This document shows positions 177 to 21,331 of a DNA stretch of 23,159 bases, one piece after another (positions within the stretch are counted from its first letter, which is position 1; each line of letters begins with the position of its first letter). A program made the position numbers and the translations under genes. The notes under the pieces were generated by a model that searched no databases, was not told the DNA's origin, and was given only the letters and a program-made list of their open reading frames with translations. The DNA comes from a virus. The stretch is taken from IMG/VR virus record IMGVR_UViG_3300013000_000010, positions 1 to 23,159 of that record. The stretch is one strand, 5' to 3'.

Positions 177-836
177 TTACTGGGCCGGTAGTAAGTGCGT
201 TATGCCCGCAAGCGCATAGGCTTTGATCATCAATTCCTGTTCAGTGCCATTGTGTCGGGAGAACTCAGCCTTGCCGCCGGTATTGCCGTCCGCATGTACA
301 GGCACCAGCCAGGGGAAATCTGCGCGGATCGTTGCCGGTGCAGCGTGCTGGTGGTGCGGATCGCAAAGTGGGAGCTGTAACAGATGTGCGCCGGATTTCG
401 TCCGCCCCTCGATGTGATGCAGGCTGATTAGCGGCGATTCTTTCCCGTGTTGAAGGCAGGCAATGCAGGGCAGTTTTCCCAGTGCATCCATTACTACGCG
501 CTCGGCTGCGGTCGGGGGGCGTCCTTTAAGGCCTCTGCCTGACGCGCTGGCGCGTGTTTGCCGTTTCGCTGCTACAGGTGCTGGTTTTTTCTCTTTCAGG
601 CGCTCAGAGGCGCTTACAGCGCGTTTCACTGCTTTGGCTCTTTGCTCTGCGATCCATTCAGGAGATTTACGCTTTTCAATCTGCTTGGCAATCATCCTGC
701 TGCTGGTGGCCTTCTGCTTTGCATACTGCTGCTGCCGAAACTCCGGGTCTGCCAGTTTTGCTGCGTGTTTTTCACGCTGACGCTGCTGTGCTTTGGCCTG
801 CTTATCCCGTGCGGCCTGAAAATCTGCCTTTTCCAT
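177..836 (-). CDS. ref: Ref-like recombination enhancement function nuclease (RecA-dependent HNH/Zn endonuclease)
   Basis: Long basic, low-complexity N-terminus, then CIAC...LHHIEGRTK..AH...LPLC..HHQ...PVH zinc/HNH motifs typical of phage P1 Ref. Confidence 0.85.
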   Translation of the reverse strand: MEKADFQAARDKQAKAQQRQREKHAAKLADPEFRQQQYAKQKATSSRMIAKQIEKRKSPEWIAEQRAKAVKRAVSASERLKEKKPAPVAAKRQTRASASGRGLKGRPPTAAERVVMDALGKLPCIACLQHGKESPLISLHHIEGRTKSGAHLLQLPLCDPHHQHAAPATIRADFPWLVPVHADGNTGGKAEFSRHNGTEQELMIKAYALAGITHLLPAQ

Positions 837-944
837 GATCTAACCAAATCTAAATTATTTTTTAGATTGTTGATCACCTTTGCCGCGCTGTAAAGCAATA
901 TGGAATTGACCACTGGAGAAATCGAATATTCGAAAAATACATAA

Positions 945-980
945 CATACGTGTTGTATTTAGTAACGTGTGTGTTAATAT
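945..980 (+). promoter_or_regulatory. Putative hicAB promoter/operator
   Basis: TTGTAT (953-958) and extended -10 TG-T-TAATAT (972-980). An imperfect inverted repeat ACATACGT...ACGTGTGT overlaps it. RBS AAGGAG precedes the ATG at 1020. Confidence 0.5.
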
Positions 981-1019
981 TCTTTTCGTGGCGCACAGCC
1001 ACAGAAAGCAAGGAGCGAA

Positions 1020-1202
1020 ATGAAGTACAGCGAGTTTCGCAGGTGGTTACTCAGCATGGGGGTAGAGTTAACGAAATCCCCTGGTGGAAGCAGCCACTTT
1101 AAAGCGAGGTACAATGGCCGTATAAGCATTGTTCCTTTCCACGGGGCGAAGGAGATACCAGAGCCTCTACGGAAGAAAATAATTAAGGATTTGGGGCTTT
1201 AG
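1020..1202 (+). CDS. hicA: HicA-family mRNA interferase toxin
   Basis: 60 aa, basic, with the MKYSEFRRWL...GSSH.K...VPFHG.KEI...IIKDLGL HicA signature including the catalytic His. Lies upstream of a HicB. Confidence 0.9.
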   Translation: MKYSEFRRWLLSMGVELTKSPGGSSHFKARYNGRISIVPFHGAKEIPEPLRKKIIKDLGL

Positions 1203-1238
1203 GCCCCACCTTTTTCGTATCTGCTGCAGGAGAAAACC

Positions 1239-1688
1239 ATGTTTGTATACCCGGTACAGTTGGAGCACGACAAACCAACCGGCTCTTATGTTGTTTCATG
1301 TCGTGATCTGCCATTACTGAACTCAGTAGGCGATACGGTAGAGGATGCGCTGCTAAACGCGGCTGAAGCTGTTGTTCTGGCAATCTCTATCGAAATGGAC
1401 GAGCGCCGTATGGTGCCGCTGGCCAGTAAGGCGAAGAAGGGCGAATATCTGGTAGGCGTGCCGGTGCTGGTGGCCATGAAGGCTGTTTTACACAATTCGA
1501 TGATCGAGACCGGCACACGAAAAGCAGACCTGGCGCGCAGTATGAACCTGAAAGGCCCGCAGGTTGACCGGCTGCTTGATGTGCATCATCCCTCAAAGGT
1601 GGAATCAGTAGAGCATGCGATCCACCAGCTCGGACGTGCAGTAAGGTTGGGAACGGTTGAGGCGTTTGCTCCAAATAAGCCCGTATGA
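1239..1688 (+). CDS. hicB: HicB-family antitoxin with C-terminal HTH
   Basis: YPV.LE...Y.VS.RDLP...S.GDT.EDAL..A.EA N-domain, plus C-terminal RKADLAR...QVDRLLD..H.SK HTH. Confidence 0.88.
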   Translation: MFVYPVQLEHDKPTGSYVVSCRDLPLLNSVGDTVEDALLNAAEAVVLAISIEMDERRMVPLASKAKKGEYLVGVPVLVAMKAVLHNSMIETGTRKADLARSMNLKGPQVDRLLDVHHPSKVESVEHAIHQLGRAVRLGTVEAFAPNKPV

Positions 1689-1698
1689 CTTTCGGGGA

Positions 1699-1797
1699 TG
1701 TGGATAACTGCGTTGCACAATCAGTTATCCACTTATCCACCGGATAGATCATATAAATCGATCATATAGAGATCATAAATAGATCCTAATAGATCAC
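1699..1797. promoter_or_regulatory. Replication origin core: DnaA boxes and five GATC repeats (P1 oriR-like)
   Basis: TGTGGATAA at 1699-1707, TTATCCACT at 1725-1733 and TTATCCACC at 1733-1741. GATC at 1747, 1760, 1771, 1782 and 1792, within (A/C)GATC(A/C)(T/C) heptamers in AT-rich DNA. Confidence 0.88.
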
Positions 1798-1841
1798 CCT
1801 ACTTTCAACTTGCTGAATTAAATGGGAAAAAGTAGGTTTTA

Positions 1842-1945
1842 CATTAGTCTATTCATGGTAAAAGTTAGTCTATTCATGTTAGATGTTAGTCTGTTCATGG
1901 TAATTGTTAGTTTATTCATGGTAGGGTGTTAGTCTATTCATGGCG
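1842..1945 (+). repeat. Five origin iterons (incC-like), consensus TGTTAGTCTATTCATGGTA
   Basis: TTAG cores at 1844, 1865, 1886, 1907 and 1929 (21-22 bp period, two helical turns), immediately upstream of repA. Confidence 0.93.
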
Positions 1946-1986
1946 GCGGTCATAAATATTCACATCACTACAATCAGGCGATATCA

Positions 1987-2871
1987 ATGGAAAATGGTAA
2001 TCAAATCAAAACAATAAGTGATGCCTTGTCATTTGTTGGTGGTGAAGAAGGGAAGACTTATACACTGACACCAACGGCTAATAGAACTGTCCAGCCAATA
2101 GCATTGATGCGCCTGGGAGTCTTTGTTCCATCGGCTAAAAATAAGCCCACTACAGGACGTGGTAACTCTACTATTGATGCTTCAGAAGACTTGCGCGAGC
2201 TTGAGATAGCAAAAGCAGAGGGTTACACAAATATCACTATTCGTGGCAGTCGCCTCGATATGAGTACGGATTTCAAGACTTGGATAGGCGCTATCCGGGC
2301 GTTCTCTAAGTATGGCGATCACTCCAACAGGATAGAGTTGCCTTTCACTGAATTTGCCAAACTTACCGGGATTGCCGTAGACGATATCAATCAACGCTCA
2401 CGCGATCGTTTTTTTGCGTCTCTTAATCGCATCGCATCCATAGTTGTTTCCTTCAAAAATAAAGATGGCAGTAAAGCCACTATCACTCACTTACTTCAAA
2501 GCGCAACGTTCGACATTGAGAAAGACATTATCTCGCTCGAGGGCGACTCCAGGCTATGGGAGCTGTACGCATTCGATCATAAAGTCTTATTGCAGCTAAA
2601 AGCCATACAGGCACTACCACGCAAGGAATCAGCCCAGGCGCTCTATGTATATATTGAGAGTATGCCTAATGGATTCATACAGATATCGCTGGAGCGACTG
2701 CGGGAGCGACTTAATCTGACGTCCAGCGTTAGTGCTCAAAATTTAGCGGTAAGAAACGCTATGAAGGAGTTGGAGAAGATAGGCTATCTGGCTTACTCAG
2801 AAGTGAAGAAAGATGGTGCAGTGTACTTCCAGATCCACTCGCGGCGACCGGAGCTGTTACCAGCCGAATGA
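1987..2871 (+). CDS. repA: Plasmid replication initiator, P1 RepA/RepFIB family
   Basis: TVQPIALMRLGVFVP, AEGY..I.I.G.RLDM.TDFKTWIG and LPRKESAQALY.YIES motifs. Flanked by iterons. Confidence 0.92.
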   Translation: MENGNQIKTISDALSFVGGEEGKTYTLTPTANRTVQPIALMRLGVFVPSAKNKPTTGRGNSTIDASEDLRELEIAKAEGYTNITIRGSRLDMSTDFKTWIGAIRAFSKYGDHSNRIELPFTEFAKLTGIAVDDINQRSRDRFFASLNRIASIVVSFKNKDGSKATITHLLQSATFDIEKDIISLEGDSRLWELYAFDHKVLLQLKAIQALPRKESAQALYVYIESMPNGFIQISLERLRERLNLTSSVSAQNLAVRNAMKELEKIGYLAYSEVKKDGAVYFQIHSRRPELLPAE

Positions 2872-3097
2872 CGTTAGGTGATTCATGGCGAACGTTAGGT
2901 GAAAACCGGTAACTCACGCATAACGTTAGGCGATTCATGCACGGCATTAGTCTATTCATGGCAAATGTTAGAAAATAGCTGCATTTTTAGGCGTCATGCG
3001 GACAAAACGCCCAGCACACCATGAATAGACTAACGTTTAACGCTTCAGGGTAATAAACACCATGAATAGACTAACGCTTACCATGAATAGACTAATG
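2872..3097. repeat. Downstream copy-control iterons (incA-like) in both orientations
   Basis: Forward copies at 2872-2890, 2924-2942 and 2945-2963 (plus a partial at 2893). Reverse copies (ACCATGAATAGACTAA) at 3017-3035, 3058-3076 and 3079-3097. Confidence 0.9.
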
Positions 3098-3186
3098 TCC
3101 ATGCCATATCAGGTTTGATGTAACTGCTACTGCCCGTCACGAAACCAGCAACGTTTACCGTGCACTGTTATCCCGATTACCAGAAT

Positions 3187-3210
3187 AAAAAAAGCCGCCC
3201 GAAGGCGGCT
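3187..3210 (-). terminator. Intrinsic terminator of the small-peptide mRNA
   Basis: Minus strand reads AGCCGCC-TTCG-GGCGGC followed by T7, starting 4 nt after the TAA of the 45-aa ORF. Confidence 0.85.
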
Positions 3211-3214
3211 AGCT

Positions 3215-3352
3215 TTATTTGCCGTGATTAACAGTAATTTGGGTAGTTATGTTGGTCGTTACAGACCAGCCAGTGCTACCAGAAGCTGCAACCACTCCTG
3301 CAAGTGTCAAAAGTGCTGACACTGACAGGGAGACGATTTTTAATCGACTCAT
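3215..3352 (-). CDS. 45-aa small hydrophobic peptide, candidate type I toxin (MSRLKIVSLSVSALLTLAGVVAASGSTGWSVTTNITTQITVNHGK)
   Basis: Below the ORF-track cutoff and translated by hand. Purine-rich RBS (GCAGAGGAAAGG) before the ATG, basic N-terminus followed by a hydrophobic helix, its own terminator and a long structured leader. Confidence 0.7.
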   Translation of the reverse strand: MSRLKIVSLSVSALLTLAGVVAASGSTGWSVTTNITTQITVNHGK

Positions 3353-3667
3353 AAGGCCTTTCCTCTGCATTTCCGCTGATGAAGAGCGCCACCGGCGACG
3401 TTCTTACATCAGACCCGCAGATAAACTTTGAGCAAAGTAATCGCCTGCGAGCTTTACGGAATTTTAGTGGCCACGCCATTCGTTCACCGGTGCCAGGTGT
3501 GGAGTGCCTGGTGACGTGGAACTAATACATGATTACCCACAAATGCAATGTTACCAACCTGTATATTTGCTTTTCAGATATAAAAATCGCTTGCCGCATG
3601 GCAATAAATCATCTAGTCCAGGGCTGTATATTGTTGTTAAGGCACCCTACACCCCAAGATGTAGTGT

Positions 3668-3676
3668 TTATCCACA
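3668..3676 (+). promoter_or_regulatory. Perfect DnaA box between the divergent peptide and sRNA units
   Basis: Exact TTATCCACA consensus. Function here is unknown. Confidence 0.4.
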
Positions 3677-3754
3677 ACATTACTCACAGTGGGTGCGGCA
3701 GTAGTGTCTATCCCATTTGACACACGTGACGTGTATCTTATTTTGTTGCGGACC

Positions 3755-3782
3755 TTGTTATCGTAACCCCTATGCGTATACT
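3755..3782 (+). promoter_or_regulatory. Sigma70 promoter of candidate antitoxin sRNA
   Basis: TTGTTA (3755-3760), 16-nt spacer, TATACT (3777-3782). The predicted start at ~3788-3790 coincides with the start of the antisense segment. Confidence 0.6.
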
Positions 3783-3787
3783 GAGCC

Positions 3788-3899
3788 TGAGCAAAGTAAT
3801 CGCCTGCGGGATAGAAAAAATTTCGCCGGTGAGCAGAAAGAAGGGTGGAGCCTTCTGACTGAGTTACTTTCAAAAAAGCCGCCTTTGGGCGGTTTTTTT
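3788..3899 (+). ncRNA. Candidate ~110-nt antitoxin sRNA
   Basis: Promoter upstream, terminator at 3872-3899 and no credible ORF. Its first 21 nt (TGAGCAAAGTAATCGCCTGCG) are identical to 3429-3449 and are therefore perfectly antisense to the leader of the minus-strand peptide mRNA. Confidence 0.68.
3872..3899 (+). terminator. Intrinsic (bidirectional) terminator
   Basis: A6-GCCGCC-TTTG-GGCGG-T7. Confidence 0.85.
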
Positions 3900-4162
3900 G
3901 TGCCTGTAGCAACGGTTTTTGGAACATCATAACTTTATTTTTTTAGCTTTCAACTCCATACCATGCTTAGCTTTGCACCTCACGCGCGCCACTCATACTG
4001 TGCATAGACAAAATCATAAATGCAGCTGTTCTTCTCGATCAAGCCCACCAGATATAGGGTTTTGCAAAACGCACATAACTGAGGGAAGTCAGTTAGCAAC
4101 GCTATGAGATTGCCATGAAACCAGCAACATTAGTCTCATGGGACGACTCTGGCCGCCAGCAT

Positions 4163-4188
4163 AAAAAAAGCCGCTTCGAAGCGGCTTT
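4163..4188 (-). terminator. Intrinsic terminator of the 71-aa ORF
   Basis: AAAGCCGCTTCGAAGCGGCTTT palindrome with an A7 run on the left (U-tract on the minus strand). Confidence 0.8.
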
Positions 4189-4195
4189 AAGTTGA

Positions 4196-4411
4196 TCATA
4201 TATTATTTTTTAGCAAAGCATAAAGCATTGCTCTGCTGTCAATCGTGTTCCCATTCAGGTCTTTGCACACCCAGTTTTTTCGCTGAAACGTGATGTAGCA
4301 GTCGGTGCGGTTGATGCGCAGGGGTTCGGTTCTGCCTGCTTCTACAAACCCTTTTGCCTTCCAGATGCCGCGCATCTTATCCAGTTCGATCTGCTTTAAG
4401 CCTAAATTCAT
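4196..4411 (-). CDS. Hypothetical small basic protein, divergent from umuD
   Basis: 71-aa ORF directly followed by a terminator. No family recognised. Confidence 0.55.
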   Translation of the reverse strand: MNLGLKQIELDKMRGIWKAKGFVEAGRTEPLRINRTDCYITFQRKNWVCKDLNGNTIDSRAMLYALLKNNI

Positions 4412-4493
4412 AGTGAGTAAATTCTTAAAATTTTAGAATGTACTTATTCTTATATGAAATCGCCCACTGGTCAATTCCATATCCTTAATCTTA

Positions 4494-4513
4494 TACTGTA
4501 TTTTTATACAGTT
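4494..4513. promoter_or_regulatory. LexA (SOS) box overlapping the -10 of umuDC
   Basis: TA-CTG-TATTTTTATA-CAG-TT (CTG-N10-CAG at 4496-4511). TATACT -10 at 4492-4497. Confidence 0.92.
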
Positions 4514-4529
4514 AAAAGGGGGGGTAATT

Positions 4530-4970
4530 ATGCGCTTAGAGATAATAGCAATACCTGACGAAGCCGCGCCCAGACAGGCTTTCAGGCAGTTTATTGAAAT
4601 GGTAGCAGCGGGTTTTCCGTCTCCTGCCATCGGGTACGAAGACACTCCGCTGGACCTGAACGAGTATTGCGTCAGGGCTAAAACGGCCACTTATTTTGTG
4701 CGCTGCGAGGGTGAGTCGATGATCGGGGCCGGTATTTTTGACGGCGATCTGCTGGTGGTGGATAAATCGAAGGCGGCGGCAGACGGCCAGATCGTGATTG
4801 CCTCTGTGGACGGGGAGTTTACGGTAAAAAAGCTGCAGCTGAGGCCGGTGCCGATGCTGCTGGCCATGAACCCGCGCTATAAGCCGATCCCTGTCGAGCC
4901 TGATGGTCTGGAAATATGGGGGGTGGTGACATACGTCATCCACCGTACTGACAATGTTCCTGCACAGTGA
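4530..4970 (+). CDS. umuD: DNA polymerase V subunit UmuD (self-cleaving, S24 family)
   Basis: AAG/FPSPA cleavage site, catalytic Ser (GESM) and Lys (TVKKL). Confidence 0.93.
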   Translation: MRLEIIAIPDEAAPRQAFRQFIEMVAAGFPSPAIGYEDTPLDLNEYCVRAKTATYFVRCEGESMIGAGIFDGDLLVVDKSKAAADGQIVIASVDGEFTVKKLQLRPVPMLLAMNPRYKPIPVEPDGLEIWGVVTYVIHRTDNVPAQ

Positions 4971-6219
4971 TGTTAACGCCTTCTACGTGTCGGCCGAGCT
5001 GGCATTCAGGCCGGACCTGTACGGGCGTCCCGTCGTGGTGGCGACCAACAATGACGGCTGTATTGCGGCGCTGAACCGCGAGGCGAAAAACGTAGGCCTG
5101 AAGCGGGGCGATCCGCTATTTAAAATCCGCGATACGATACGGCGCTACGGCGTGGTGGTGTTCAGCAGCAACTACACGCTTTATGACGCATTCAGTAAGC
5201 GTTTCCATACGATAGTGGGCGAGTATGTCCCGAACCTAGAAGCGTACTCGATCGACGAAGTGTTTGGCTCTCTGGACGGCATGGAAAAGCTGGTGGACTT
5301 CCAGACATTCGGAGAAGAGATCCGGCGCACCGTTATCCAGCACACCACGATGAAGTGTGGCATAGGAATAGCCGAGACGAAGACGCTCTGTAAGGTAGCC
5401 ACGCACGCAGCAAAGACCTGGCCTAAAACAGGCGGTGTGGTGGTGCTGACCGACCCGAAACGGCGCGACAAGCTGCTATCACTGCTCGACGTCTCCGAGA
5501 CATGGGGTGTTGGCAGAAAGATAGGGGCCAGGCTGCAGCTGATGAACATCAAGACGATGCTCGACCTGGCCCGCGCTGACACAACCATGATCCGCAAAAA
5601 TTTCAATGTGATGCTGGAGCGCACCGTACGGGAGCTGCGCGGCGAACGCTGCTTCGAGCTCGAAGAGAACCCGGCGACCAAGCAGCAGCTGGTGGTAAGC
5701 CGTTCGTTCGGCAAACGCCTCACCAGCCTGGATGAAGTGAGTAACGCCGTGTGCTTCTTTGCCACCAGCGCCGGTGAAAAGCTGCGGCGTGAAAAGCAGT
5801 ACTGCCGAAATATCACGGTATTCATCCAGACCAGCAAACACGATCCGCGCCGCCCGTATTATTCACGCGGCGCCAGCCATTCGTTTACGACGGCCACACA
5901 GGATACCCGCGATCTGATTGATGCCGCCGTGCACGGCCTCAGAGCTATCTGGCGGGACGGCTATGAGTATGCGAAGGCTGGAGTGATGCTTGGGGAGTTC
6001 TGCGGCTCAGAGCAGCAACTGAACCTTTTTGACGAGTCACCGCCGCGCCCCGGCAGCGATAAGCTGATGGCCGTGATGGACAAGCTGAATAGCTACCAGC
6101 GCGGCACACTGTTTATTGCCGGTCAGGGCGTCAATCCGGCTTACCAGATGAAGAGGGAAATGCTATCTCCGCGCTATTTGACGCGCTGGGAAGAGCTACC
6201 CATCGTAAAAATGAAGTAA
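4954..6219 (+). CDS. umuC: DNA polymerase V catalytic subunit UmuC (Y family)
   Basis: D.NAFY.S.E..FRPDL, NNDGC, SSNY.LY, YSIDE and C-terminal MKREMLSPRY.TRW. Overlaps umuD. Confidence 0.95.
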   Translation: MFLHSDVNAFYVSAELAFRPDLYGRPVVVATNNDGCIAALNREAKNVGLKRGDPLFKIRDTIRRYGVVVFSSNYTLYDAFSKRFHTIVGEYVPNLEAYSIDEVFGSLDGMEKLVDFQTFGEEIRRTVIQHTTMKCGIGIAETKTLCKVATHAAKTWPKTGGVVVLTDPKRRDKLLSLLDVSETWGVGRKIGARLQLMNIKTMLDLARADTTMIRKNFNVMLERTVRELRGERCFELEENPATKQQLVVSRSFGKRLTSLDEVSNAVCFFATSAGEKLRREKQYCRNITVFIQTSKHDPRRPYYSRGASHSFTTATQDTRDLIDAAVHGLRAIWRDGYEYAKAGVMLGEFCGSEQQLNLFDESPPRPGSDKLMAVMDKLNSYQRGTLFIAGQGVNPAYQMKREMLSPRYLTRWEELPIVKMK

Positions 6220-6698: not shown

Positions 6699-6902
6699 TT
6701 GAAATTAACCACTGGAATATTACACATGACCGGCACTGCTAAATCCCTCAATCTGAGCCAGCCGTTACTCATCAGTGCTTTACTCGCTGAAATAGCAAGA
6801 CTCCATCCCGGTACCAGCGTCAATAAGGCGCAGTTTGCTGCCGTTGTGGAGGCTGTAAACCATGTAGTAATTGCTTTTAGCCGTGAAAGTGGTGATGCCT
6901 GA
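6699..6902 (+). CDS. Hypothetical protein (true start may be ATG 6727)
   Basis: The stop overlaps the next start (TGATG), which suggests translational coupling. Confidence 0.55.
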   Translation: MKLTTGILHMTGTAKSLNLSQPLLISALLAEIARLHPGTSVNKAQFAAVVEAVNHVVIAFSRESGDA

Positions 6903-7546
6903 TGACTGACCGCTTTTACATGATCTGTACCAGAGATACGGTAGGCAGTAATGCTTCTTTCTGGTGCCAGGATGGTCACGGCTACAACACCAATATCGAA
7001 AAAGCACACGTCTATACCCTGGCAGAAGCACAGAGCCGCTGGAATACAGGCCGGACTATCGATCAACCCGTTTGCGCTGACAGCGTGGATGCACTGGCCG
7101 TCATTCACGTTGACCACCAGCATGTACCAGGTCAGTCGATCATTACCCCTGACTGCAGCCGGTATGTTGCCTTTCAGAAAGGGCGCTGGGATGGCAATGA
7201 CCTGTACTGGCTCCGCAACGGCGGTCTGCCGACGACCGACTTCACACAAGCGACCATTTTCGATAGACCGGGCGATACGGCCGAGCTGGTTTGGCTACCG
7301 TTCGCCACGGCTGACGCAGTAAAGCGCCGCACGTTCCCCATTGCCATGCTGGATCATCGCCGCATGGTGCAGGGTGCTGGTCTGCGAGTACCAGCGCACA
7401 TCAGCCGCGCCCGCCGCCGCAAGCCAGGCACAGGAAAGACGCGCCTCAACTGCCCGGACTGTGGGCGCATTCACTGGCAACTCAATCCGTATGTCTTTGA
7501 AGGCTGCGCTGACTGGCAGTGTGCGGGAGCGCGTACGCATGGATAA
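6902..7546 (+). CDS. Hypothetical phage protein with internal repeat and C-terminal Cys cluster
   Basis: Two similar segments (GSNASFW...GYNTNIEKA and GNDLYW...LPTTDFTQA) and CPDCGR...C..WQC. Coupled to its neighbours. Confidence 0.7.
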   Translation: MTDRFYMICTRDTVGSNASFWCQDGHGYNTNIEKAHVYTLAEAQSRWNTGRTIDQPVCADSVDALAVIHVDHQHVPGQSIITPDCSRYVAFQKGRWDGNDLYWLRNGGLPTTDFTQATIFDRPGDTAELVWLPFATADAVKRRTFPIAMLDHRRMVQGAGLRVPAHISRARRRKPGTGKTRLNCPDCGRIHWQLNPYVFEGCADWQCAGARTHG

Positions 7547-8018
7547 GGCCGTATTAGACATGTGCTGTGGCCCGCGCATGATGTGGTTCGATAAAGCCGA
7601 TCCCCGCGTGCTGTATTCCGATATCCGGGAAGAGACCCACCAGCTGCCCGACCGGGAGCTTGTCATTAGCCCGGACGTGATTGCCGACTTCCGATCCTTG
7701 CCATTCCCGGATAACTCTTTTTACGTGATTGCCTTTGACCCGCCGCACCTGGAGCGGGCAGGCGAAAAGGGGTGGCAACGGCTCAAGTATGGAGTGCTCA
7801 ATCGCGGGACCTGGCGCAATGATCTGCGTGCCGGTTTTACTGAGGCCTTCCGCGTGCTGCGCCCGAACGGCCTGCTGATTTTTAAATGGAATGAAACGCA
7901 GATCCGGGCGCGGGACATTCTGGCGCTGACTGACCAGAAACCCCTGTTTGGCCACATCAGCGGGAAGCGTGGTTTAACGCACTGGTTCACTTTTATGAAG
8001 GATGGGAATAAGCAGTGA
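7539..8018 (+). CDS. Small phage class I SAM-dependent methyltransferase (amino-MTase-like)
   Basis: Start re-assigned to ATG 7539 (MDKAVLDMCCG). Motif I LDMCCG, DFR.LPF.D.SF, motif IV-like FDPPH, and EAFRVLRPNG.LIFKWNE. Confidence 0.85.
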   Translation: MDKAVLDMCCGPRMMWFDKADPRVLYSDIREETHQLPDRELVISPDVIADFRSLPFPDNSFYVIAFDPPHLERAGEKGWQRLKYGVLNRGTWRNDLRAGFTEAFRVLRPNGLLIFKWNETQIRARDILALTDQKPLFGHISGKRGLTHWFTFMKDGNKQ

Positions 8019-8662
8019 AACAACGGCCAATTTTCTTCAATGGCGACATGGTTCGCGCCGTTATAGACGGCAGAAAGACGCAGACACGACGGATTATGCG
8101 GGTACAGCCAGAGTCAGCTGAGTTTGAACCTCGCTTTATTATTGATTCAACGAAGCGCAGCGAAATTGATAATTGGTGCTGGGCCGAGCCGGGTGTGTTC
8201 GTCAATCCCCGTCGCTCTGCGTTGTTTCCTTGCCCATTCGGAGTGGTAGGTGATCGCTTATGGGTGCGTGAGACGCATTCAATCCGGGTTGAGCCATCGG
8301 AACATACACCTGGAGTTGCCTGGTATCGCGAAAGTGACATTGGGCGTCGCTGGGAAGGTCAACTTCGTTGGCGTCCATCAATCCACATGCCGCGCTGGGC
8401 TTCCCGCATAACGCTGGAGATTACCGGCGTTCGTGTGGAGCGGCTGCAGGCTATCAGTGAAGAGGATGCAAAGGCTGAGGGCGTTCCACCAGCTGGCGGT
8501 TTACTACCTGATTACCCTGGCACTTACCTGACGCCAAAAGGCGATTTCGCTACCGCTGAGGTGGCATTCCAGCGACTGTGGCAATCCATTTACGGCACTG
8601 ACAGCTGGCTGGCTAACCCGTGGGTGTGGGTAATTGAGTTTAAGCGCGTGGTAGAGGATTGA
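8015..8662 (+). CDS. Conserved phage protein, ASCH/PUA-like
   Basis: RPIFFN..MVRAV.DGRKTQTRR, CPFG..GDRLWVRET, WRPSIHMPRWASRI.LEIT.VRVERLQ.I and NPWVWVIEF. Confidence 0.75.
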   Translation: MKQRPIFFNGDMVRAVIDGRKTQTRRIMRVQPESAEFEPRFIIDSTKRSEIDNWCWAEPGVFVNPRRSALFPCPFGVVGDRLWVRETHSIRVEPSEHTPGVAWYRESDIGRRWEGQLRWRPSIHMPRWASRITLEITGVRVERLQAISEEDAKAEGVPPAGGLLPDYPGTYLTPKGDFATAEVAFQRLWQSIYGTDSWLANPWVWVIEFKRVVED

Positions 8663-11821: not shown

Positions 11822-11896
11822 CACTTCTCACTGACTGACCACCAGCTATCCGGTTGGTGGCCGGTTATCATTTCAAGCAATTCAGAACGGCAGAAA

Positions 11897-12340: not shown

Positions 12341-12518
12341 TCTGACGCGGCTGGTGGATAAGCTGGTAATTTCGGACAGTACCGGGGCCACCAGCCCGGA
12401 GGAATAACAGATCCAGTTAAAGCAGACGTTCACCGCGCCTGCCTGGTGGTTGCCCTCAGCTGCCAGCATCCCTAGAATGCGCCTCTTTACAATATCTTGA
12501 CGATTTTAAAACGGACTT

Positions 12519-13631: not shown

Positions 13632-13695
13632 AATTGCCTTTCCAATATCACAAACCGTTTATCCTGGCCGTCACACTGACTCAGAGGCCACCAGC

Positions 13696-14154
13696 ATGAC
13701 CACACCAACCGACTTAAACAGCATTGCCAACGATGCGGCCGCATTGCCCGACACGTTCAACGCCGGCGAATTAACATTAATCGCCGGCGCAGCAATTTCT
13801 CTGCCGATCGCCCCGATGCCGCTGGTGGTAACTTTCTGCGCAACAGACGGCACGCGGGCGCAGCTTACAGTGAATAAGGGCAGGGTGACGTTTGAAGGCG
13901 ATCCCGACGCTGCAGCGGAAATGTTTATCGAGGCGGTGACGCGAAAGCACGCGCAGCAGTGGAGCGCGCAGCAGGCGCAGCTGGAGGAAGCGGAAGCCCA
14001 GCTGACGGCGTACTCACACCACAATGGTCTGATGATGCTCTCACAGCGGCTGGTGGACGCGGAGAAGGAGCGCGACACATTGCAAATGGAGGTTGATCGG
14101 CTGCGGGAAAGCGGAGGCGTTCACTGTAATCAGTGCTTAAACTGTAGTAATTAA
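13696..14154 (+). CDS. Hypothetical protein with C-terminal coiled coil and Cys motif
   Basis: 152 aa, RBS GAGG, heptad-rich Q/E/L tail ending CNQCLNC. Confidence 0.65.
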   Translation: MTTPTDLNSIANDAAALPDTFNAGELTLIAGAAISLPIAPMPLVVTFCATDGTRAQLTVNKGRVTFEGDPDAAAEMFIEAVTRKHAQQWSAQQAQLEEAEAQLTAYSHHNGLMMLSQRLVDAEKERDTLQMEVDRLRESGGVHCNQCLNCSN

Positions 14155-14173
14155 CAGGCGGCTACTGACAGAC

Positions 14174-15332: not shown

Positions 15333-15608
15333 TTTTCCACCTTAGCCGGGATACGTGTATCACCAGGCAGCTCGTTTATGTGAGCCAATCAAGTCGGTTG
15401 TCGACATTCGACAACGGTCCACTAAATCTACGTAACAGTAGTAGATTTGGCAAAGCTAAAAGTGCTAAATCCCCTTTAAACACTGGGAAAATACCGTTTT
15501 CGGACTGTTGCAAGTCACTGCTGAAAGTTGGTCATTGGTTGACCACCAGCAGAAAAAAAAGCTCTGATTAAGAGGGCTTCGTTGTCGTAATAACGACCAA
15601 AAATCATA

Positions 15609-16871
15609 CTACTTTATAGCTGGGATATCTTTTAATCGTGTGGTGTATCGAGGCGAGAGCATTTCACGTCTCATCTGCCATGCGCTGTCTTGCTCTCCCT
15701 GTCCCGCGAAGAATACCTTTCCCCTCCCGGAGCGATTGATAGCGTCCAGCGCGGCCATCAGAGCATCTGCATTTGCACGCGGCTGCTGCTCACTGAACAT
15801 GTCAAACTGCGCCACACCAGACTGGTAAAAATCCCCCAGCATTACGCCTGCTTTTGCGTACCGGTAGCCGTCGCGCCAGATAGTGCTCAGCCCGCGTAGC
15901 GCCGACTCAATAATGTCCCGCGTGTCGCTGGTGGGGTAGTCGCAGACGCATGAGGCGGTATTCGAATACTGAGGCTCATTTGCGTGCCTGGCGGTAGAGA
16001 TCGACACGCTGATATGTCGGCAACGCGAGTTCTGCTCTCTCAGCTTTTCACCGGCACGGGTGGCGTAGAGCGTGACGGCCTGCTTCATGTCGTCCAGCTC
16101 CGTGATCCTCTCACCAAATGAGCGCGAGTTAAGGATGTTCTGCTTTGGCGGCGGCGCGTCTTCCAGTGCGATGCAGGACTCACCATTGAGCTCGCGGGTG
16201 GTACGCTCAACGATGACGTCAAAGTTTTTCCGGATCATGCTGATATTGCTGTCCGCCAGCTGCAGAGCCGTGGTGATCCCCAGCTGGTGCATGCGCTTGG
16301 TAATGCGCGGGCCGATACCCCATATATCGCCGACGTCGGTCAGGTGAAGCAGCTTTCGCTGCCGGGTCCGGCTGGATAAATCGACCACGCCCTTTGTCTG
16401 CGTCCATTTTTTCGCAGCATGGTTAGCCAGCTTGGCCAGCGTCTTAGTTGGTCCGAACCCTACGCCAATTATCAGCCCGGTTTCCTTCCGGATACGCTCA
16501 CGCATCTGGTGTCCGAACGTCTCAAGCGGGATCACATTGCTGATGCCGGTGACGTCCAGAAATGACTCGTCGATAGAGTAAACCTCCTGTCCAGCAGCCA
16601 TCTCGCCCAGTATGGCCATCATCCGGGCCGACATATCGCCGTACAGCTCATAATTGGAACTGAACACATGCACGCCGTTCTGCCTGAAAAAACGCTCATT
16701 CAGAAACAGCGGCGCCGCCATTTTGATTCCCAGGCGCTTTGCCTCTGCCGAACGTGCGATCACGCAGCCGTCGTTGTTCGAAACGACGACAATCGGTTTA
16801 CCGCGCAGATCGGGCCTGAACACGGTTTCACAGGAGGCATAGAAGTTATTGGCATCGGCCAGCGCAAACAT
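15609..16871 (-). CDS. umuC: Second DNA polymerase V catalytic subunit UmuC
   Basis: MFALAD.NNFYASCE.VFRPDL, SNNDGC.IARS.EAK, SSNYELY, YSIDE and WQMRREMLSPRYTT. Confidence 0.95.
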   Translation of the reverse strand: MFALADANNFYASCETVFRPDLRGKPIVVVSNNDGCVIARSAEAKRLGIKMAAPLFLNERFFRQNGVHVFSSNYELYGDMSARMMAILGEMAAGQEVYSIDESFLDVTGISNVIPLETFGHQMRERIRKETGLIIGVGFGPTKTLAKLANHAAKKWTQTKGVVDLSSRTRQRKLLHLTDVGDIWGIGPRITKRMHQLGITTALQLADSNISMIRKNFDVIVERTTRELNGESCIALEDAPPPKQNILNSRSFGERITELDDMKQAVTLYATRAGEKLREQNSRCRHISVSISTARHANEPQYSNTASCVCDYPTSDTRDIIESALRGLSTIWRDGYRYAKAGVMLGDFYQSGVAQFDMFSEQQPRANADALMAALDAINRSGRGKVFFAGQGEQDSAWQMRREMLSPRYTTRLKDIPAIK

Positions 16872-16873
16872 GC

Positions 16874-17251
16874 TTAATCTCCTGCAGGCCCGTTAAAGCC
16901 GATCCCGGCCACATCGGTTAGGGCATAAGCCACCACACCCCATACAGGAAGCTCCTGGCTCACATCGAGCAGTGTTACTGTTTCGTCCGCGTCCAGCGCC
17001 TGGAGGGCGGGAACCGGATTGAGCAACAGCCGCCTCAGTGCCAGCTCGCCGTCGAACTCCGCCACGATAAGCTGCCTGTGCGCCGGCGTCAGGGCGCGAT
17101 CGATGGCCAGCACGGACCCTTTGACAATCCCGGCGCCGGGGCAGTCGGATTCGCTGCGCATCAGATAGGTTGAGAAGGGGGAAAGGGATACCAGATCGCC
17201 CAGGTTCAGGCGCGTTTCAGTGTAGTTCTGGGCGGGGCTCTGAAAGGCCAT
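16874..17251 (-). CDS. humD: HumD-like, pre-cleaved UmuD' homolog
   Basis: Begins MAFQSPA, at the position of the UmuD cleavage site. GESM is replaced by ESDC and TVKKL by ALRRL. The C-terminal VWGVV is kept. Confidence 0.8.
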   Translation of the reverse strand: MAFQSPAQNYTETRLNLGDLVSLSPFSTYLMRSESDCPGAGIVKGSVLAIDRALTPAHRQLIVAEFDGELALRRLLLNPVPALQALDADETVTLLDVSQELPVWGVVAYALTDVAGIGFNGPAGD

Positions 17252-17340
17252 TGCATTGCTCCATTCTGATCAACGTAATTCAACTCCTGATATGAGTATA
17301 AGACGCTATAAGAGACAATGCTCAGATGTGGAGATAAAGG

Positions 17341-17362
17341 TCCGCTTTGAGCGAGAAGCGGA
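17341..17362 (+). repeat. 22-bp palindromic repeat, left copy
   Basis: TCCGCT-TTGAGCGAGA-AGCGGA. 17/22 identical to 18366-18387. Confidence 0.75.
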
Positions 17363-17396
17363 AATTACATAAAATTAATTAGTTTCGATTTTATAA

Positions 17397-18284
17397 TTAA
17401 AGTTCTAATGCTTTCTCTCTGCTAATTGATCCTTCACCATTACAAATTTTGCAATCCAATTGTATACCTCTGCAATCAGGGCAAGTGAATGTTTCATAAT
17501 TAGAAAGATTTACCTTTGCAGCAATATGTTTTTTAACGGACCCCATTCTATTACAGATAGGACAATCTTCTCCTGCTAATCTGCCTCTTCCATTGCACAA
17601 AGGACAAGTTAAAGTAGGTGTTAATTCATTTTCATTTTCATTTTCATGAATAAAATTTTTGAATTGCTGAGCGTTGATTGTGCTTAGTTGAACTTTTTCG
17701 ATTTTTCTTATGTGATATTCAAAAAACTTTTTAATTGTTTTCTTAAGATCTTCCTTAGAGGATTTCCATAGTTCCGGTGAGATTCTAAGTAGTTGAAATC
17801 CTTCGTTTCTAGTTATTGCTGAATCACGTTTGTAAGTATCTTTAATCTTACTTTCCACATAATGAGATATATGACCATCATACTCGATGCCAATAGCAGC
17901 AATCTCAACCGAATCTTGACCAATCAATCTATTTAGTCGTAGAACAAGGTCTATTGCCCAAGGCTGGTTTTTTGGATTTATATTATCAACCTTATATTGA
18001 GGATCGATACAAACAGTATGTCCTTGTGTGAATTGGCCTTTCAGCGTTATTCTTCGTGGTGAATTTTGGAAAAAATCAATTTCCAATGGGCTAAACTGAG
18101 ATATAAGGCTGGCAATTACCTCTATCTCTGCCTGAGAGGTTCTTTCTACCCCTTGTAAACTAATAAGGCCTATAGCCACTTCTCGGTTAGTGGCTGGCTC
18201 AATCCTTTTAAAAAGTATCTTTTGATTATTACTGAAGTTATTTTTGATACCTTCAAGTGTTTTATCTAGTTCCATCTCGCGCAC
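17397..18284 (-). CDS. Vsr/DUF559-like PD-(D/E)XK nuclease domain fused to a DnaJ-type CxxCxGxG zinc finger
   Basis: PQYKV...IDLVL...IGIEYDGH..H...KRD......GFQLLRI, then CPLCNGRG, CPICNRMG, CPDCRG and CKICNGEG. Very AT-rich. Confidence 0.75.
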   Translation of the reverse strand: MREMELDKTLEGIKNNFSNNQKILFKRIEPATNREVAIGLISLQGVERTSQAEIEVIASLISQFSPLEIDFFQNSPRRITLKGQFTQGHTVCIDPQYKVDNINPKNQPWAIDLVLRLNRLIGQDSVEIAAIGIEYDGHISHYVESKIKDTYKRDSAITRNEGFQLLRISPELWKSSKEDLKKTIKKFFEYHIRKIEKVQLSTINAQQFKNFIHENENENELTPTLTCPLCNGRGRLAGEDCPICNRMGSVKKHIAAKVNLSNYETFTCPDCRGIQLDCKICNGEGSISREKALEL

Positions 18285-18365
18285 TCTATTGATTGATTAT
18301 CCATACAAACTACATGACCATTTAAACTGCTCAACCTAGATTAACATAGCACGATGCGAACAGTA

Positions 18366-18387
18366 TCCGCTCTAGGCAAAAAGCGGA
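18366..18387 (+). repeat. 22-bp palindromic repeat, right copy
   Basis: TCCGCT-CTAGGCAAAA-AGCGGA, same orientation as the left copy. Confidence 0.75.
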
Positions 18388-18401
18388 CATCAGTAGAAAA
18401 T

Positions 18402-18426
18402 AAAAAAGCCCCGATTAAGGGGCTTT
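18402..18426 (-). terminator. Intrinsic terminator
   Basis: Minus strand reads AAAGCCCC-TTAATC-GGGGC-TTTTTT. Confidence 0.8.
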
Positions 18427-18563
18427 GAAGAGCAAAGGCTAATGGCAACATCAATCAAGAAACATCTGATTAATAAATTACCAAACCCTTAGATTTATAC
18501 AAGCTATTTCATTGCCAGCCTGAAGCATCGTTACCTGCTAATTCTGGCAGGTACTAACGCCTT

Positions 18564-19358
18564 TTATTCCGCTTTTTGCGGTTCAGCCGCTGCCGCTGCG
18601 GCCACCAGCTCCGGCTGAGGCTGTGGGGCGTCGGTTTTCGCCTTTGCCAGCAGGATAGTGCGCTGCAGTTGCGCCTTTTCGATGGCCTCTTTCACCATAT
18701 CAGCATCCAGTCCGACAACCGCAAATTTGTCCAGGCCTTCCATGCGGAAAAGGTTCGTTTCAGGTGCCATTTCCTTCAGGGCTTTCTCGTTCTGAACTGT
18801 GATGTAGATCAGCTGTGGCTCGGCCTCTGCGCCGTCCGGGATATACACGTAAGCATGCTGGCCAACGCCTAATGCCTGGAGGAACAGGACGCAGACAGCC
18901 AGTGGCAGAGAGGTATGCACTACGCTGACATGCTGCAGCCTGCCAGTGAGAACGCCGTGCAGCTGCGCATTATGAGGCATGTATGGGCTGACCGTCTCCA
19001 CGCGCCACGCCCCGGTAAGCGAACCGTCCACAAACGCCTCGCCGGTGATGTTCATCGACATCTGACGCATGAGCAGCTGCGCAAAGCTCTTATCCATTGT
19101 CGGAGCCAGGGGCAGCGCGCCGGTCTTCTCATTGATTGCGTCTACCGCTTCCTGACGTTTAGCGGCATCCTCCGGCAATTCCTGGCTGTGGAGCAGCCAG
19201 TAGCGCTCATCTTTGTTAACCCACACAGTGACGTCTTCAACTTCCTGTGGCTCAAAGCCCAGTGCGGCCACCAGCGCAATCTCAAGATTTGCCGGGCCGA
19301 TCTCGTTCTTCTCATTGACCTCAATGGCCGTGGTCTTGCTGATAATGTACTGAGTCAT
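18564..19358 (-). CDS. Hypothetical protein
   Basis: 264 aa with backbone-like codon usage, 9 nt downstream of dut. Confidence 0.75.
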   Translation of the reverse strand: MTQYIISKTTAIEVNEKNEIGPANLEIALVAALGFEPQEVEDVTVWVNKDERYWLLHSQELPEDAAKRQEAVDAINEKTGALPLAPTMDKSFAQLLMRQMSMNITGEAFVDGSLTGAWRVETVSPYMPHNAQLHGVLTGRLQHVSVVHTSLPLAVCVLFLQALGVGQHAYVYIPDGAEAEPQLIYITVQNEKALKEMAPETNLFRMEGLDKFAVVGLDADMVKEAIEKAQLQRTILLAKAKTDAPQPQPELVAAAAAAEPQKAE

Positions 19359-19367
19359 GATCGCGCC

Positions 19368-19955
19368 TTATTTGCTGGTGGTCTTAGTGCTGGTGCTGGT
19401 GGTTTCGTTCACCGCTGACTCTTCAACCTGAGTGGGTTCCTGCGAGTCGGCCGCGGTCGTGCTGGTATCGTCTTCGACAGGCGTCGGGTTGGTCTGTACC
19501 GGCGTAGTAGACCCAAAGCCGCCATCGCCACGGGCAGTTTCTGACAGCTGATCGACTTCTTTCCAGGTGACTGACTCAACTTTCTCGATCGTTGCCTGCG
19601 CGATGACCATGCCAGCCTTCGGCTCAATGAACTGACCGCCTTCATCGGCAATCATGCGCAGTTTGATCTCGCCACGGTAATCGCTGTCGATGATGGCCAC
19701 GTTGTTCGCCAGGCGCAGGAAGTTGTTCACAGCCAGCCCGGAACGAGGATAAATCTTCATGCAGTATCCAGATGGGATCTCCACGGCCAGTCCGGTCGTG
19801 ACCCACCACGCACGCGGCTGACGGGTTGCGCCCTGAGTCAGTACGACGTTATTTTTCACGTCCAGCGCGGTGATATCCCACGCTGCAGCGCCGTCCGAAC
19901 CACGGAACGGCAGTTTGGCGTCTGGTGTGAGACGTTTGATCTTAATTTGAGGCAT
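19368..19955 (-). CDS. dut: Trimeric dUTPase with C-terminal Thr/Ser/Glu-rich tail
   Basis: All five motifs are present: AAAWDI, PRSGLA, IIDSDYRGEI, IAQ and RGDGGFGST. Confidence 0.93.
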   Translation of the reverse strand: MPQIKIKRLTPDAKLPFRGSDGAAAWDITALDVKNNVVLTQGATRQPRAWWVTTGLAVEIPSGYCMKIYPRSGLAVNNFLRLANNVAIIDSDYRGEIKLRMIADEGGQFIEPKAGMVIAQATIEKVESVTWKEVDQLSETARGDGGFGSTTPVQTNPTPVEDDTSTTAADSQEPTQVEESAVNETTSTSTKTTSK

Positions 19956-20433
19956 GGCTTAACTCCGGTGATTTAAAGGTGTAATGGCGGCGCTTGCGGA
20001 CAGAGTTCTCATAGAGAGGGACGTCTGTGTACTCCACCAGCCCGCGTGCAATCAGTTTCTTCACGGACTGCAGGAAGAGGGAATGGCTTACATCAAACTC
20101 CTGGCGCACCTGTCTGGCGGTGATGTACCGGTTCTGATCGAGCAGAATCAGAATGTACTCTTCGGTCTTCCCCATTTTCAGGGGCGTCAGTCTGGCGGCA
20201 TACGCGGGCGTCACCGCCAGGCTGTACTCGTTATCAATGGATCGCGTGATCAGTCCATTTTTAAGGAGGTCCAACAGCGTTCCCCGGATGACATGCGTTG
20301 ACGTGTCCGGCAGGGCGCGGGTAAAGCGGCGGCGCGTGGCGATACGCTCATCCTTCAGCAGCATCAGCACAGCTGAGGCCGTTTCCGGATATCGGGCGCG
20401 AAAAACTTTAAGTTTTGGTAAAAGGCGCTTCAA
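19942..20433 (-). CDS. Putative tandem winged-helix DNA-binding protein
   Basis: Basic, with two repeats ending L..L.KNGLI...Y.L and VKKLIARGLVE...Y.F. Confidence 0.6.
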   Translation of the reverse strand: MKRLLPKLKVFRARYPETASAVLMLLKDERIATRRRFTRALPDTSTHVIRGTLLDLLKNGLITRSIDNEYSLAVTPAYAARLTPLKMGKTEEYILILLDQNRYITARQVRQEFDVSHSLFLQSVKKLIARGLVEYTDVPLYENSVRKRRHYTFKSPELSHASN

Positions 20434-20540
20434 TGTTCTGTTATCCTTGCCATTGGTTTATTTCGGATACCTACATCCAGTGGTTAACGTTTGAACCAGA
20501 ACGAACGGGATAAGGGAGCCAGCAATGGCTCCCTTTTTCT

Positions 20541-20999
20541 TTAGTCCTGCGTCCACTTCTCGCCCGTATCAACGCACACCACGCCGTGACACACGCGCCC
20601 CTGATCCAGCCTGAAGGCCATGCCGCCCAGCTTGCTGCGCCTGCGGCAGAACTGCGCTCCTGAAAGGTAGGCATGCGGCACGACAGACTCGATCGCGCCT
20701 TCCTCGGTACACTGGCCGTCCTCTGCGTCGGCGTAGCCACGCGCAAACTCGCTGAGCACTTCGCGCCGGTCTTCAAAGCGAATGACTTCGCCCTGGTCCG
20801 GGTCGCGGGCGTACTCGATCGCGCCGTATTTAGCAAGGGATGCGACGGTTTTGGGGTGCCTGAATATTTCCTCGCCCCAGTACTGCCCGGTGCAGGAATC
20901 AACGTAGGAACCGCTGGAATAGGAGCCGATAGGGTTAGAGACGTCGTGTGCCATTGCCACAGCCACGAAGAAGTTAACGACGTTGCCGGTAACAGACAT
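20541..20999 (-). CDS. Hypothetical protein
   Basis: 152 aa, TAATG-coupled to the upstream ORF. Confidence 0.65.
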   Translation of the reverse strand: MSVTGNVVNFFVAVAMAHDVSNPIGSYSSGSYVDSCTGQYWGEEIFRHPKTVASLAKYGAIEYARDPDQGEVIRFEDRREVLSEFARGYADAEDGQCTEEGAIESVVPHAYLSGAQFCRRRSKLGGMAFRLDQGRVCHGVVCVDTGEKWTQD

Positions 21000-21331
21000 T
21001 ATTTCCCCGTAAAGAGCCGTTCCCGGCTGCTTAAGGTGTTGGTTTCCTGCTGGGTGAAAGCGCGGTCCACCAGCCCGACAACTGCGGCAAATTCACTTCT
21101 GAAATACTCCAGTAGCTTATTTGCGGCGCGGTCGGTGATGTTTTCCACGTAGTAGCAGGCGCTGTATTGGTCGATCCTGGGTTTTTCGAGGGTCAGCAGT
21201 GGTGCGGCTTCTGACAGCGTAGACACGCCGTATTCCACCAGCGCCACTCCGCCGCGCTTGATGGCGGTAAAGGTCAGCTGGTGGCCGTCAATGGAGAACG
21301 TGCGCGTAAGTAAGATTTGTTGTCTGGCCAT
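20999..21331 (-). CDS. Hypothetical protein
   Basis: 110 aa, first gene after the AT-rich intergenic region downstream of cre. Confidence 0.65.
   Translation of the reverse strand: MARQQILLTRTFSIDGHQLTFTAIKRGGVALVEYGVSTLSEAAPLLTLEKPRIDQYSACYYVENITDRAANKLLEYFRSEFAAVVGLVDRAFTQQETNTLSSRERLFTGK

Follow-up and report, generated by a model that had tools for sequence, protein, structure and literature searches.

Chi sites in a P1/D6-like phage-plasmid of Pantoea: an enrichment that codon usage does not explain and that selection on the DNA appears to maintain

Why should a stretch of phage DNA hold dozens of copies of Chi, the octamer recognised by the RecBCD enzyme of enterobacteria? The question is raised by the first 23,159 nucleotides of the IMG/VR virus record IMGVR_UViG_3300013000_000010 (positions 1 to 23,159; the window in what follows), where an exact search finds 36 sites, 19 reading GCTGGTGG (Chi on the plus strand) and 17 reading CCACCAGC (Chi on the minus strand). 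A first-pass annotation made by eye had given each of them its exact coordinate and strand, and the roughly 0.7 sites it expected by chance agree with dinucleotide-preserving shuffles of the window (0.73 ± 0.76, maximum 3). The enrichment is a published phenomenon of the P1 family, encountered here in a new member from Pantoea; the best explanation, with a probability of about 0.7, is that the sites are genuine, selected Chi serving circularisation by RecBCD and RecA as modelled for P1, in an element in which neither a recombinase nor a RecBCD inhibitor was detected.

The window belongs to a single contig of 90,665 nt, rated complete in IMG/VR, with a terminal overlap of 88 bp that holds no Chi. 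The closest database relatives are non-mobilisable plasmids of ~87–95 kb from Pantoea agglomerans, P. eucalypti and Pantoea sp. (80–88% identity), annotated with terminase, portal, capsid, tail and baseplate genes as well as with hallmarks of P1: Lpa, Mat, DdrA, a Dam-type methylase, a 2289-aa SNF2 (DarB-like) protein, RdgC and Ref. By tblastn, 46 of the 110 predicted genes of the replicon have a P1 homologue, and the P1-type gene set is present (a RepA replicon, Ref, Lpa, Mat, Ddr-type and DarB-like proteins, a Dam-type methylase and structural genes, some of them recognised via the annotation of a relative). The element is a complete 90.7-kb P1/D6-like phage-plasmid of Pantoea; its likeness to P1, and the fact that P1 is itself rich in Chi, had been stated correctly beforehand, as gene content and published P1 work bear out.

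The replicon as a whole carries 110 Chi (43 plus, 67 minus), or one per 824 bp, and Chi is its commonest octamer, the next non-overlapping one occurring 45 times. Because the share of the window (36 of the 110 in 25.5% of the length; one-sided binomial P = 0.055) is only marginally above proportional, Chi richness characterises the whole replicon rather than the window. Within the window, the two orientations occur about equally often, alike in blocks of plus-strand and of minus-strand genes. The density is 1.23 per kb in coding and 1.02 per kb in non-coding DNA, and with the curated gene model, which combines codon-usage scoring, gap filling and corrections from a relative's annotation, 11 sites fall in 8.1 kb of non-coding DNA; some 65% of the coding sites are sense.

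Such numbers could be a by-product of translation. As has been argued for the chromosome of E. coli, a surplus of Chi may arise where the codons CTG (Leu) and GTG (Val) and the dipeptide Leu-Val are common, and here 49 of the 99 coding sites indeed lie in the sense frame xxG-CTG-GTG-Gxx, while CTG makes up 5.2% of all codons and 59% of the Leu codons. Codon usage falls far short of the observed count, though. Permuting synonymous codons within each gene of the replicon yields 26–28 ± 4 sites, free permutation of codons 19 ± 3, and even a synonymous shuffle that keeps every dinucleotide yields 43 ± 4 with a maximum of 55–56, as compared to the 110 present; for the 36 sites of the window the respective expectations are 10.5 ± 1.8, 7.1 ± 1.5 and 14.3 ± 2.2. 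Markov models of order 5–6 predict 49–92 sites, but there the counts are dominated by Chi's own 7-mers, which makes them invalid as a null. Sites on the antisense strand are as enriched as sense sites (observed/expected, O/E, 5.7–6.1 and 5.4–5.6), and the 11 sites of the non-coding DNA (45% GC) compare with 0.16–0.29 expected, a ~40–70-fold excess. The codon artefact is refuted, and as an explanation of the surplus it has next to no probability left; the codon-shuffle check that the first-pass annotation had proposed thus bears out its attribution of the sites to selection, as do the conservation data given below. The E. coli chromosome shares with the element the octamer and its commonest reading frame; there, codon usage nearly explains the frequency of Chi, which is 13 times rarer outside open reading frames (ORFs) and ranks 21st among octamers, whereas in the element codon usage explains about a quarter to 40% of the count, Chi is as dense outside genes as within them and no octamer is commoner.

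What composition does account for is that the raw density is about twice that of P1. The background of the element is richer in GC (54%, as compared to 47% in P1) and in CTG (2.7% of codons in P1), and because of this the density is raised while the fold enrichment is unchanged: O/E under the synonymous shuffle is 4.2 for this element, 3.6 for a plasmid of P. agglomerans and 4.4 for P1, and under an order-3 Markov model 8.0, 7.9 and 7.0, respectively. The idea that selection might be stronger here than in P1 was dropped, as the ratios are equal. For the same reason the density deserves the epithet "extreme", given to it at first sight, less than the raw count suggests, all the more so since relatives of the Pantoea type and from Cronobacter hold 89–103 sites each.

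If it is not translation that maintains the sites, is it selection on the DNA? An alignment of the replicon with plasmid NZ_CP134741.1 of P. agglomerans covers 86% of the length at 88.3% identity; this plasmid has 97 Chi, and Chi is likewise its top octamer. Intact in the relative are 73 of the 94 aligned sites, as compared to 38.2 ± 4.5 expected from same-phase 8-mers within 120 nt of each Chi; none of 20,000 simulations reached 73, and 8-mers of the same composition are conserved 42% of the time. Divergence per position is 2–5% over the eight positions of Chi and 10–14% at the immediate flanks (means of 3.9% inside the octamer and 13.6% outside), and the step falls exactly at the octamer's edges, which indicates that the selected unit is exactly the octamer. 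The excess is found for antisense sites (22 of 30 conserved, 11.9 expected), for non-coding sites (7 of 8, 2.9 expected) and for sites in the Leu-Val frame (36 of 43, 17.8 expected); only in the small class of sites in other sense frames is it not significant. An octamer-sized footprint at antisense and non-coding sites speaks once more against an origin in translation. In P1 itself, at a median protein identity of 43%, seven of the 47 alignable sites have Chi at the exactly homologous codon (15%, against a baseline of 1.9%; P = 2.6e-5); as the remaining 40 are not common to both, Chi sites also turn over. Judged from these alignments, Chi is kept by selection that acts on the DNA itself and throughout the genome.

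A footprint of this kind says only that the exact 8-mer matters, and the octamer could in principle be the site of another phage or host factor (a regulator, a methylase, a packaging factor) that matches Chi by coincidence. Nothing specific favors this. The octamer under selection matches the enterobacterial Chi in every letter, it also ranks first in P1, P7, D6, SJ46 and JK004, phages of other genera, and beyond a weak C at +1 its flanks have no extended consensus; moreover, on either strand the sites are spread through genes and non-coding stretches and do not cluster at promoters. We regard such a coincidence as extremely unlikely.

The pattern agrees in most respects with what is known from P1. 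Subramaniam and Smith (2021/2022, bioRxiv 10.1101/2021.07.08.451572) describe P1 as having 50 Chi in 94.8 kb (our recount: 31 + 19), as top octamer and on both strands, denser towards the packaging ends and about equally dense in ORFs and outside of them, with 63% of the sites sense and 41% in the CTG|GTG frame; P7, D6 and NGUA22 are said there to have the same traits. The element agrees in this: no octamer is commoner than Chi, both strands carry it, its density is much the same within ORFs (1.2 per kb) and elsewhere (1.0–1.4 per kb), the sense share is about that of P1, around half of the coding sites fall in the CTG|GTG frame, Chi is denser downstream of the packaging site (pac), no RecBCD inhibitor is found and the fold enrichment is alike. 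The differences lie in the raw density, which is 2.3 times higher (P1 has one Chi per 1.9 kb), in a much shallower gradient around pac and in the host, which is Pantoea (Erwiniaceae). The first-pass annotation had also called for comparison with other members of the P1 group: D6 has 53 Chi, P7 51 and SJ46 54, Cronobacter phage JK004 has 103, and five Pantoea-type plasmids have 89, 89, 93, 97 and 103, so these relatives are Chi-rich as well and the 110 sites of this element are the highest count among those compared. What is added here is direct evidence for purifying selection on single sites, with an octamer-sized footprint and genome-wide, which the P1 study, in its accessible part, does not put forward.

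A rule that phages without a recombination (Rec) module have many Chi has been extended to lambdoid phages, with up to ~25–27 sites (Zheng, Casjens, Davidson, Amundsen and Smith 2025, PMC12315714). Like the element, phages such as LLS are without a phage recombinase or RecBCD inhibitor, and in that paper their Chi are inferred to recruit host RecBCD for a recombination step that the life cycle requires; they differ, as described there, in having cos or pac ends and nearly all Chi in the one active orientation, at ~1 per 1.9 kb. The element has mixed orientations at about twice that density, and mixing is expected for headful DNA that is terminally redundant and partially permuted. Its own Rec module was looked for by a six-frame search, in which Gam (PF06064), Mu-Gam (PF07352), RecT/Red-beta (PF03837) and Erf (PF04404) were not found, while the search did not extend to inhibitors and recombinases of the Abc2, gp5.9, Sak and Sak4 types. 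Ref and a homologue of RdgC are present, as in P1; the Ref-like RecA-filament endonuclease, whose P1 counterpart is the recombination enhancement function, is encoded at 177–836 (minus strand; PHROG 2321, E 2e-77).

Homologues of PacA and PacB are encoded on the minus strand at 26545–27819 and 25034–26545, respectively, and 150–240 nt into pacA, at 27580–27668, lies the densest GATC cluster of the replicon: seven GATC, six of them TGATCA, five on a 12-nt period. This is the candidate pac; in P1, Dam hexamers flank the site and cleavage takes place 277 nt into pacA. P1 and D6 have the same gene order as the element, pacA-pacB-c1-like-(rox)-cre-like, and by analogy packaging would proceed towards descending coordinates, a direction deduced from this order together with the published wording on D6, which is said to use Chi to the "left" of its pac (bioRxiv 10.1101/2021.07.08.451572). 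The window would then lie 4.5–27.6 kb downstream of pac, and if terminal redundancy is ~10% as in P1, the ends of about the first three headfuls should fall in it.

The mechanism favored here follows the P1 model, in which growth requires RecA and RecBCD, the two circularise the injected, terminally redundant DNA, and Chi ensures productive recombination from either end (bioRxiv 10.1101/2021.07.08.451572). Transferred to the element, it would run as follows. After cleavage at pac and headful packaging, virion DNA would enter the cell as a linear molecule with terminal repeats, and host RecBCD would load at both of its ends. Within ~1–4 kb it would meet a correctly oriented Chi, cease degradation and load RecA; the terminal repeats would then recombine to give a circle for plasmid maintenance or lytic growth. 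With the ends of the first few headfuls placed in the window, both orientations would be expected to be equally common there, as 19 and 17 are. RecBCD responds to no more than some of the Chi it meets; even so, with this spacing of the sites it would presumably turn before it had gone more than a few kb from either end, well within a repeat of ~9 kb. The position of the window downstream of the putative pac, the presence of both orientations, the ref gene and the lack of a detected Rec module fit such RecBCD/RecA-dependent circularisation of terminally redundant DNA, and to this extent the circularisation and repair function proposed at first sight, with Ref assisting, agrees with both the P1 model and the anatomy seen here. 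A second route to the circle may be offered, by analogy, by a Cre/Dre-type cyclisation recombinase of 343 aa encoded at 21425–22456 on the minus strand (55% identity to Dre of D6, 42% to Cre of P1), ~5 kb downstream of the candidate pac.

The distribution of Chi along the replicon has the shape of that in P1: high over the first 40 kb downstream of pac, a trough at 40–60 kb, and a renewed rise upstream of pac. In successive bins of 10 kb the element has 1.4, 1.9, 1.3, 1.5, 0.7, 0.7, 1.0, 1.0 and 1.4 Chi per kb, P1 0.9, 0.9, 0.8, 0.2, 0, 0.2, 0.2, 0.5 and 0.9. In a side observation, 12 of the 14 Chi found within 10 kb on the upstream side of pac (replicon 27.6–37.6 kb) face a RecBCD that would enter at the unpackaged pac end and move away from pac, as do 10 of 13 in the matching region of P1 and 12 of 15 in that of D6; these are mostly sense sites, so that the bias is confounded with gene strand.

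Several points weigh against circularisation as the whole story. The layout of the candidate pac is different from the 4 + 3 hexamers flanking an IHF site in P1, and the pac site, the packaging direction and the size of the terminal redundancy are all assigned by analogy. The enrichment on the pac side is shallow, about 2-fold from peak to trough as compared to more than 4-fold in P1, and modestly significant (61 of the 110 Chi in the first 40 kb, P = 0.02; for the window against the rest, the P of 0.055 given above). Conservation does not follow the gradient: 37 of 48 aligned sites are conserved 0–40 kb downstream of pac (19.1 expected) and 12 of 13 at 80–90.7 kb, the 10 kb just upstream of pac (5.0 expected), but so are 24 of 33 in the trough at 40–80 kb (14.3 expected, P = 5e-4), which circularisation alone does not predict unless the packaging series is long. 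The conservation test consists of one pairwise comparison plus P1; in it, selection appears equally strong 40–80 kb from pac and next to it, for both orientations and for non-coding sites. On the side of the host, RecC of P. conspicua has a proline in place of T40, a residue reported to affect Chi recognition (the other 11 of the 12 Chi-channel residues are identical), and recognition of GCTGGTGG by the RecBCD of Pantoea is a prediction.

There is another interpretation: Chi could blunt degradation by RecBCD at any double-strand end, be it from a restriction cut, from a collapsed fork in the low-copy plasmid prophage or at the rolling-circle tail of a phage without Gam, and general protection or self-mimicry would be the main function, circularisation a secondary one, and the acquisition of fewer CRISPR spacers from the element a by-product. 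Purifying selection is indeed genome-wide, sites 40–80 kb from pac included; the trough density of 0.7 per kb is still 2–4 times that of the host; no RecBCD inhibitor was found (Gam and Mu-Gam being the ones searched for); and the window has no Chi-free interval longer than 3.6 kb on the plus strand or 4.1 kb on the minus strand. Levy et al. are also said to have found, in 2015, that Chi limits RecBCD-dependent spacer acquisition. On the other hand, Chi is still densest downstream of pac, as it is in P1, and a long series of headfuls could explain genome-wide selection without a second function. Protection as the main function is judged rather unlikely. It and circularisation are not mutually exclusive and the sequence does not separate them, nor does it back or exclude the self-mimicry named in the first-pass annotation, a notion that is disputed as a general idea by Subramaniam and Smith (bioRxiv 10.1101/2021.07.08.451572). 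Selection all over the genome would mean either that the packaging series is long, with ends all round the genome, or that Chi has a further role; since sites far from pac are selected too, it is probable that Chi has a general part in RecBCD-dependent repair or in protecting the replicon as well.

Whether GCTGGTGG is the working Chi of the host can be approached through host genomes. P. conspicua has 1303 Chi in 4.3 Mb (a genome that includes a related element) and P. allii 923 in 5.1 Mb; in both, Chi is 3–4 times as frequent as the reversed control octamer and occurs once per 3.3–5.5 kb, similar to E. coli (one per 4.6 kb). The element is thus 4–7 times denser in Chi than its hosts, the comparison with the host chromosome having been another suggestion of the first-pass annotation. 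Full-length RecC is encoded in P. conspicua. Its Chi-channel residues were considered as a test of host specificity and set aside as uninformative, because specificity is not governed by them: all 12 are also present in P. syringae, which reads GCTGGCGC (PMC5959072). All enteric species tested use Chi according to Zheng et al. (PMC12315714), Pantoea not being named in the accessible part of that paper. The octamer-exact footprint is the best in silico sign, and an indirect one, which indicates that GCTGGTGG probably works as Chi in Pantoea.

No new mechanism is revealed by all this. Its value lies in a clean quantitative case of direct selection on Chi as a signal in DNA, with a footprint, equal enrichment of sense, antisense and non-coding sites, and sites kept since the split from P1. 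The Chi pattern of the P1 family is extended to elements of the Pantoea type and from Cronobacter, with ~90–110 sites each, and fold enrichment is seen to be constant while raw density tracks genome composition, all of which supports the view that phages without a recombination module of their own recruit the RecBCD of the host. More tentatively, and with the odds somewhat against it, Chi may have two jobs in this lineage of phage-plasmids, maintenance of the plasmid prophage besides circularisation of injected DNA; candidates for the first of these may be repair of the low-copy replicon, a safeguard for rolling-circle tails or for the pac end left unpackaged, and a reduced uptake of CRISPR spacers supplied by RecBCD. 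If so, P1-like elements would be a natural system in which the density of Chi is tuned as an anti-defence or maintenance trait.

The individual sites of the window, placed by exact search and classed by their state in NZ_CP134741.1, begin with two on the plus strand that are antisense in ref and changed in the relative, 347–354 (with Chi at the homologous codon in P1, position 2475) and 702–709. The HicB-like ORF 1239–1688 contains 1466–1473 (plus, sense) and 1622–1629 (minus, antisense), neither of which is alignable. Conserved throughout are 4751–4758 (plus), sense in the umuD-like gene 4530–4970 and with Chi at the homologous codon of P1 humD (P1 87724), and three sites in umuC (4954–6219), 5289–5296 and 5688–5695 (plus, sense) and 5762–5769 (minus, antisense). 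Four antisense sites on the minus strand follow, 7114–7121 (ORF 6902–7546) and 7637–7644 (methyltransferase-like ORF 7539–8018) being conserved, 8486–8493 (ORF 8015–8662) and 9015–9022 (ORF 8865–9209) not alignable. Three conserved plus-strand sites are sense in ORFs 9196–9549 (9256–9263), 9560–9859 (9700–9707) and 9975–10931 (10385–10392), and the last of them is the left half of a back-to-back pair whose right half, 10393–10400 (minus), is conserved too. Further conserved sites are 11428–11435 (minus, antisense in ORF 11151–11459) and 11743–11750 (plus, sense in ORF 11459–11821).

The intergenic site 11839–11846 (minus) and 12223–12230 (plus, sense in ORF 11897–12340) are not alignable; they are followed by an intergenic inverted pair with arms of 9 bp and a 30-nt loop (12350–12357, plus, left arm; 12388–12395, minus, right arm) and by 13034–13041 (plus), sense in the acyltransferase ORF 12519–13595. 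Conserved again are the intergenic 13688–13695 (minus), then 13821–13828 and 14049–14056 (both plus and sense in ORF 13696–14154), the intergenic 15543–15550 (minus) and 15927–15934 (plus), antisense in a second umuC (15609–16871). The five intergenic positions, 11839, 12350, 12388, 13688 and 15543, are precisely the sites outside the gene model, in keeping with what had been read from the letters. Of the two minus-strand sites that are sense in ORF 18564–19358, 18602–18609 is conserved and 19268–19275 changed, as are both plus-strand sites antisense in dut (19368–19955), 19374–19381 and 19395–19402. The remaining four are conserved: 20034–20041 (minus, sense in the HTH ORF 19942–20433), 21067–21074 and 21235–21242 (minus, sense in ORF 20999–21331) and 21277–21284 (plus, antisense in the same ORF).

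The back-to-back pair reported at 10385–10400 is real and forms the core of an 18-bp perfect palindrome (10384–10401) within its ORF. It is one of three inverted Chi pairs able to form hairpins, together with 12349–12396 of the window and replicon 35740–35772; the latter two are intergenic, with arms of 9–10 bp and loops of 30 and 13 nt, respectively, and each of the three offers Chi in both directions at one spot. They may be due to chance, as the total of close pairs is about that of random placement: a surplus of closely paired sites was considered and rejected, simple arithmetic on the replicon coordinates giving eight neighbour gaps of 60 nt or less where ~7.7 are expected at random. A Chi-bearing repeat family was likewise rejected, the weak C at +1 being the only flanking consensus. 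The two longest stretches of the window without Chi on either strand, 1630–4750 and 15935–18601, both overlap DNA of low GC content, the former being the replicon and small-ORF region (~46% GC) and the latter running from the second umuDC operon into an AT-rich single-gene block at 17397–18284 (GC at third codon positions, 0.25). By analogy, this fits modules that were recently acquired or are differently constrained and have yet to gather Chi; swapped modules poor in Chi are described by Zheng et al. (PMC12315714).

Some features of the replicon stand apart from Chi. RepA, the replication initiator, is encoded at 1987–2871 (identified with PHROGs), and just upstream of its gene, at 1611–1810, six GATC lie within 200 nt, resembling the five Dam sites of P1 oriR; five TGATCR at ~22601–22800, between the cre-like and c1-like genes, resemble the Dam sites of the cre regulatory region of P1. 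There are two separate operons for umuD/umuC-type translesion polymerases (4530–6219, plus; 15609–17251, minus), whereas P1 has humD only. The second UmuC is 97% identical to that of P. conspicua LMG 24534; this strain was considered as the exact host and rejected, since the related element carried there is ~85% identical and a different one. Finally, a plasmid labelled as being from Acinetobacter venetianus, CP060164.1, is identical in its Chi counts (34, 55) and its replicon cluster to pPSP-26e of Pantoea sp. PSNIH1 (the pair CP009882.1/CP060164.1) and also has Tn3 and ISEc9; the match may reflect a mistaken host label or a transfer of the element well beyond the Enterobacterales.

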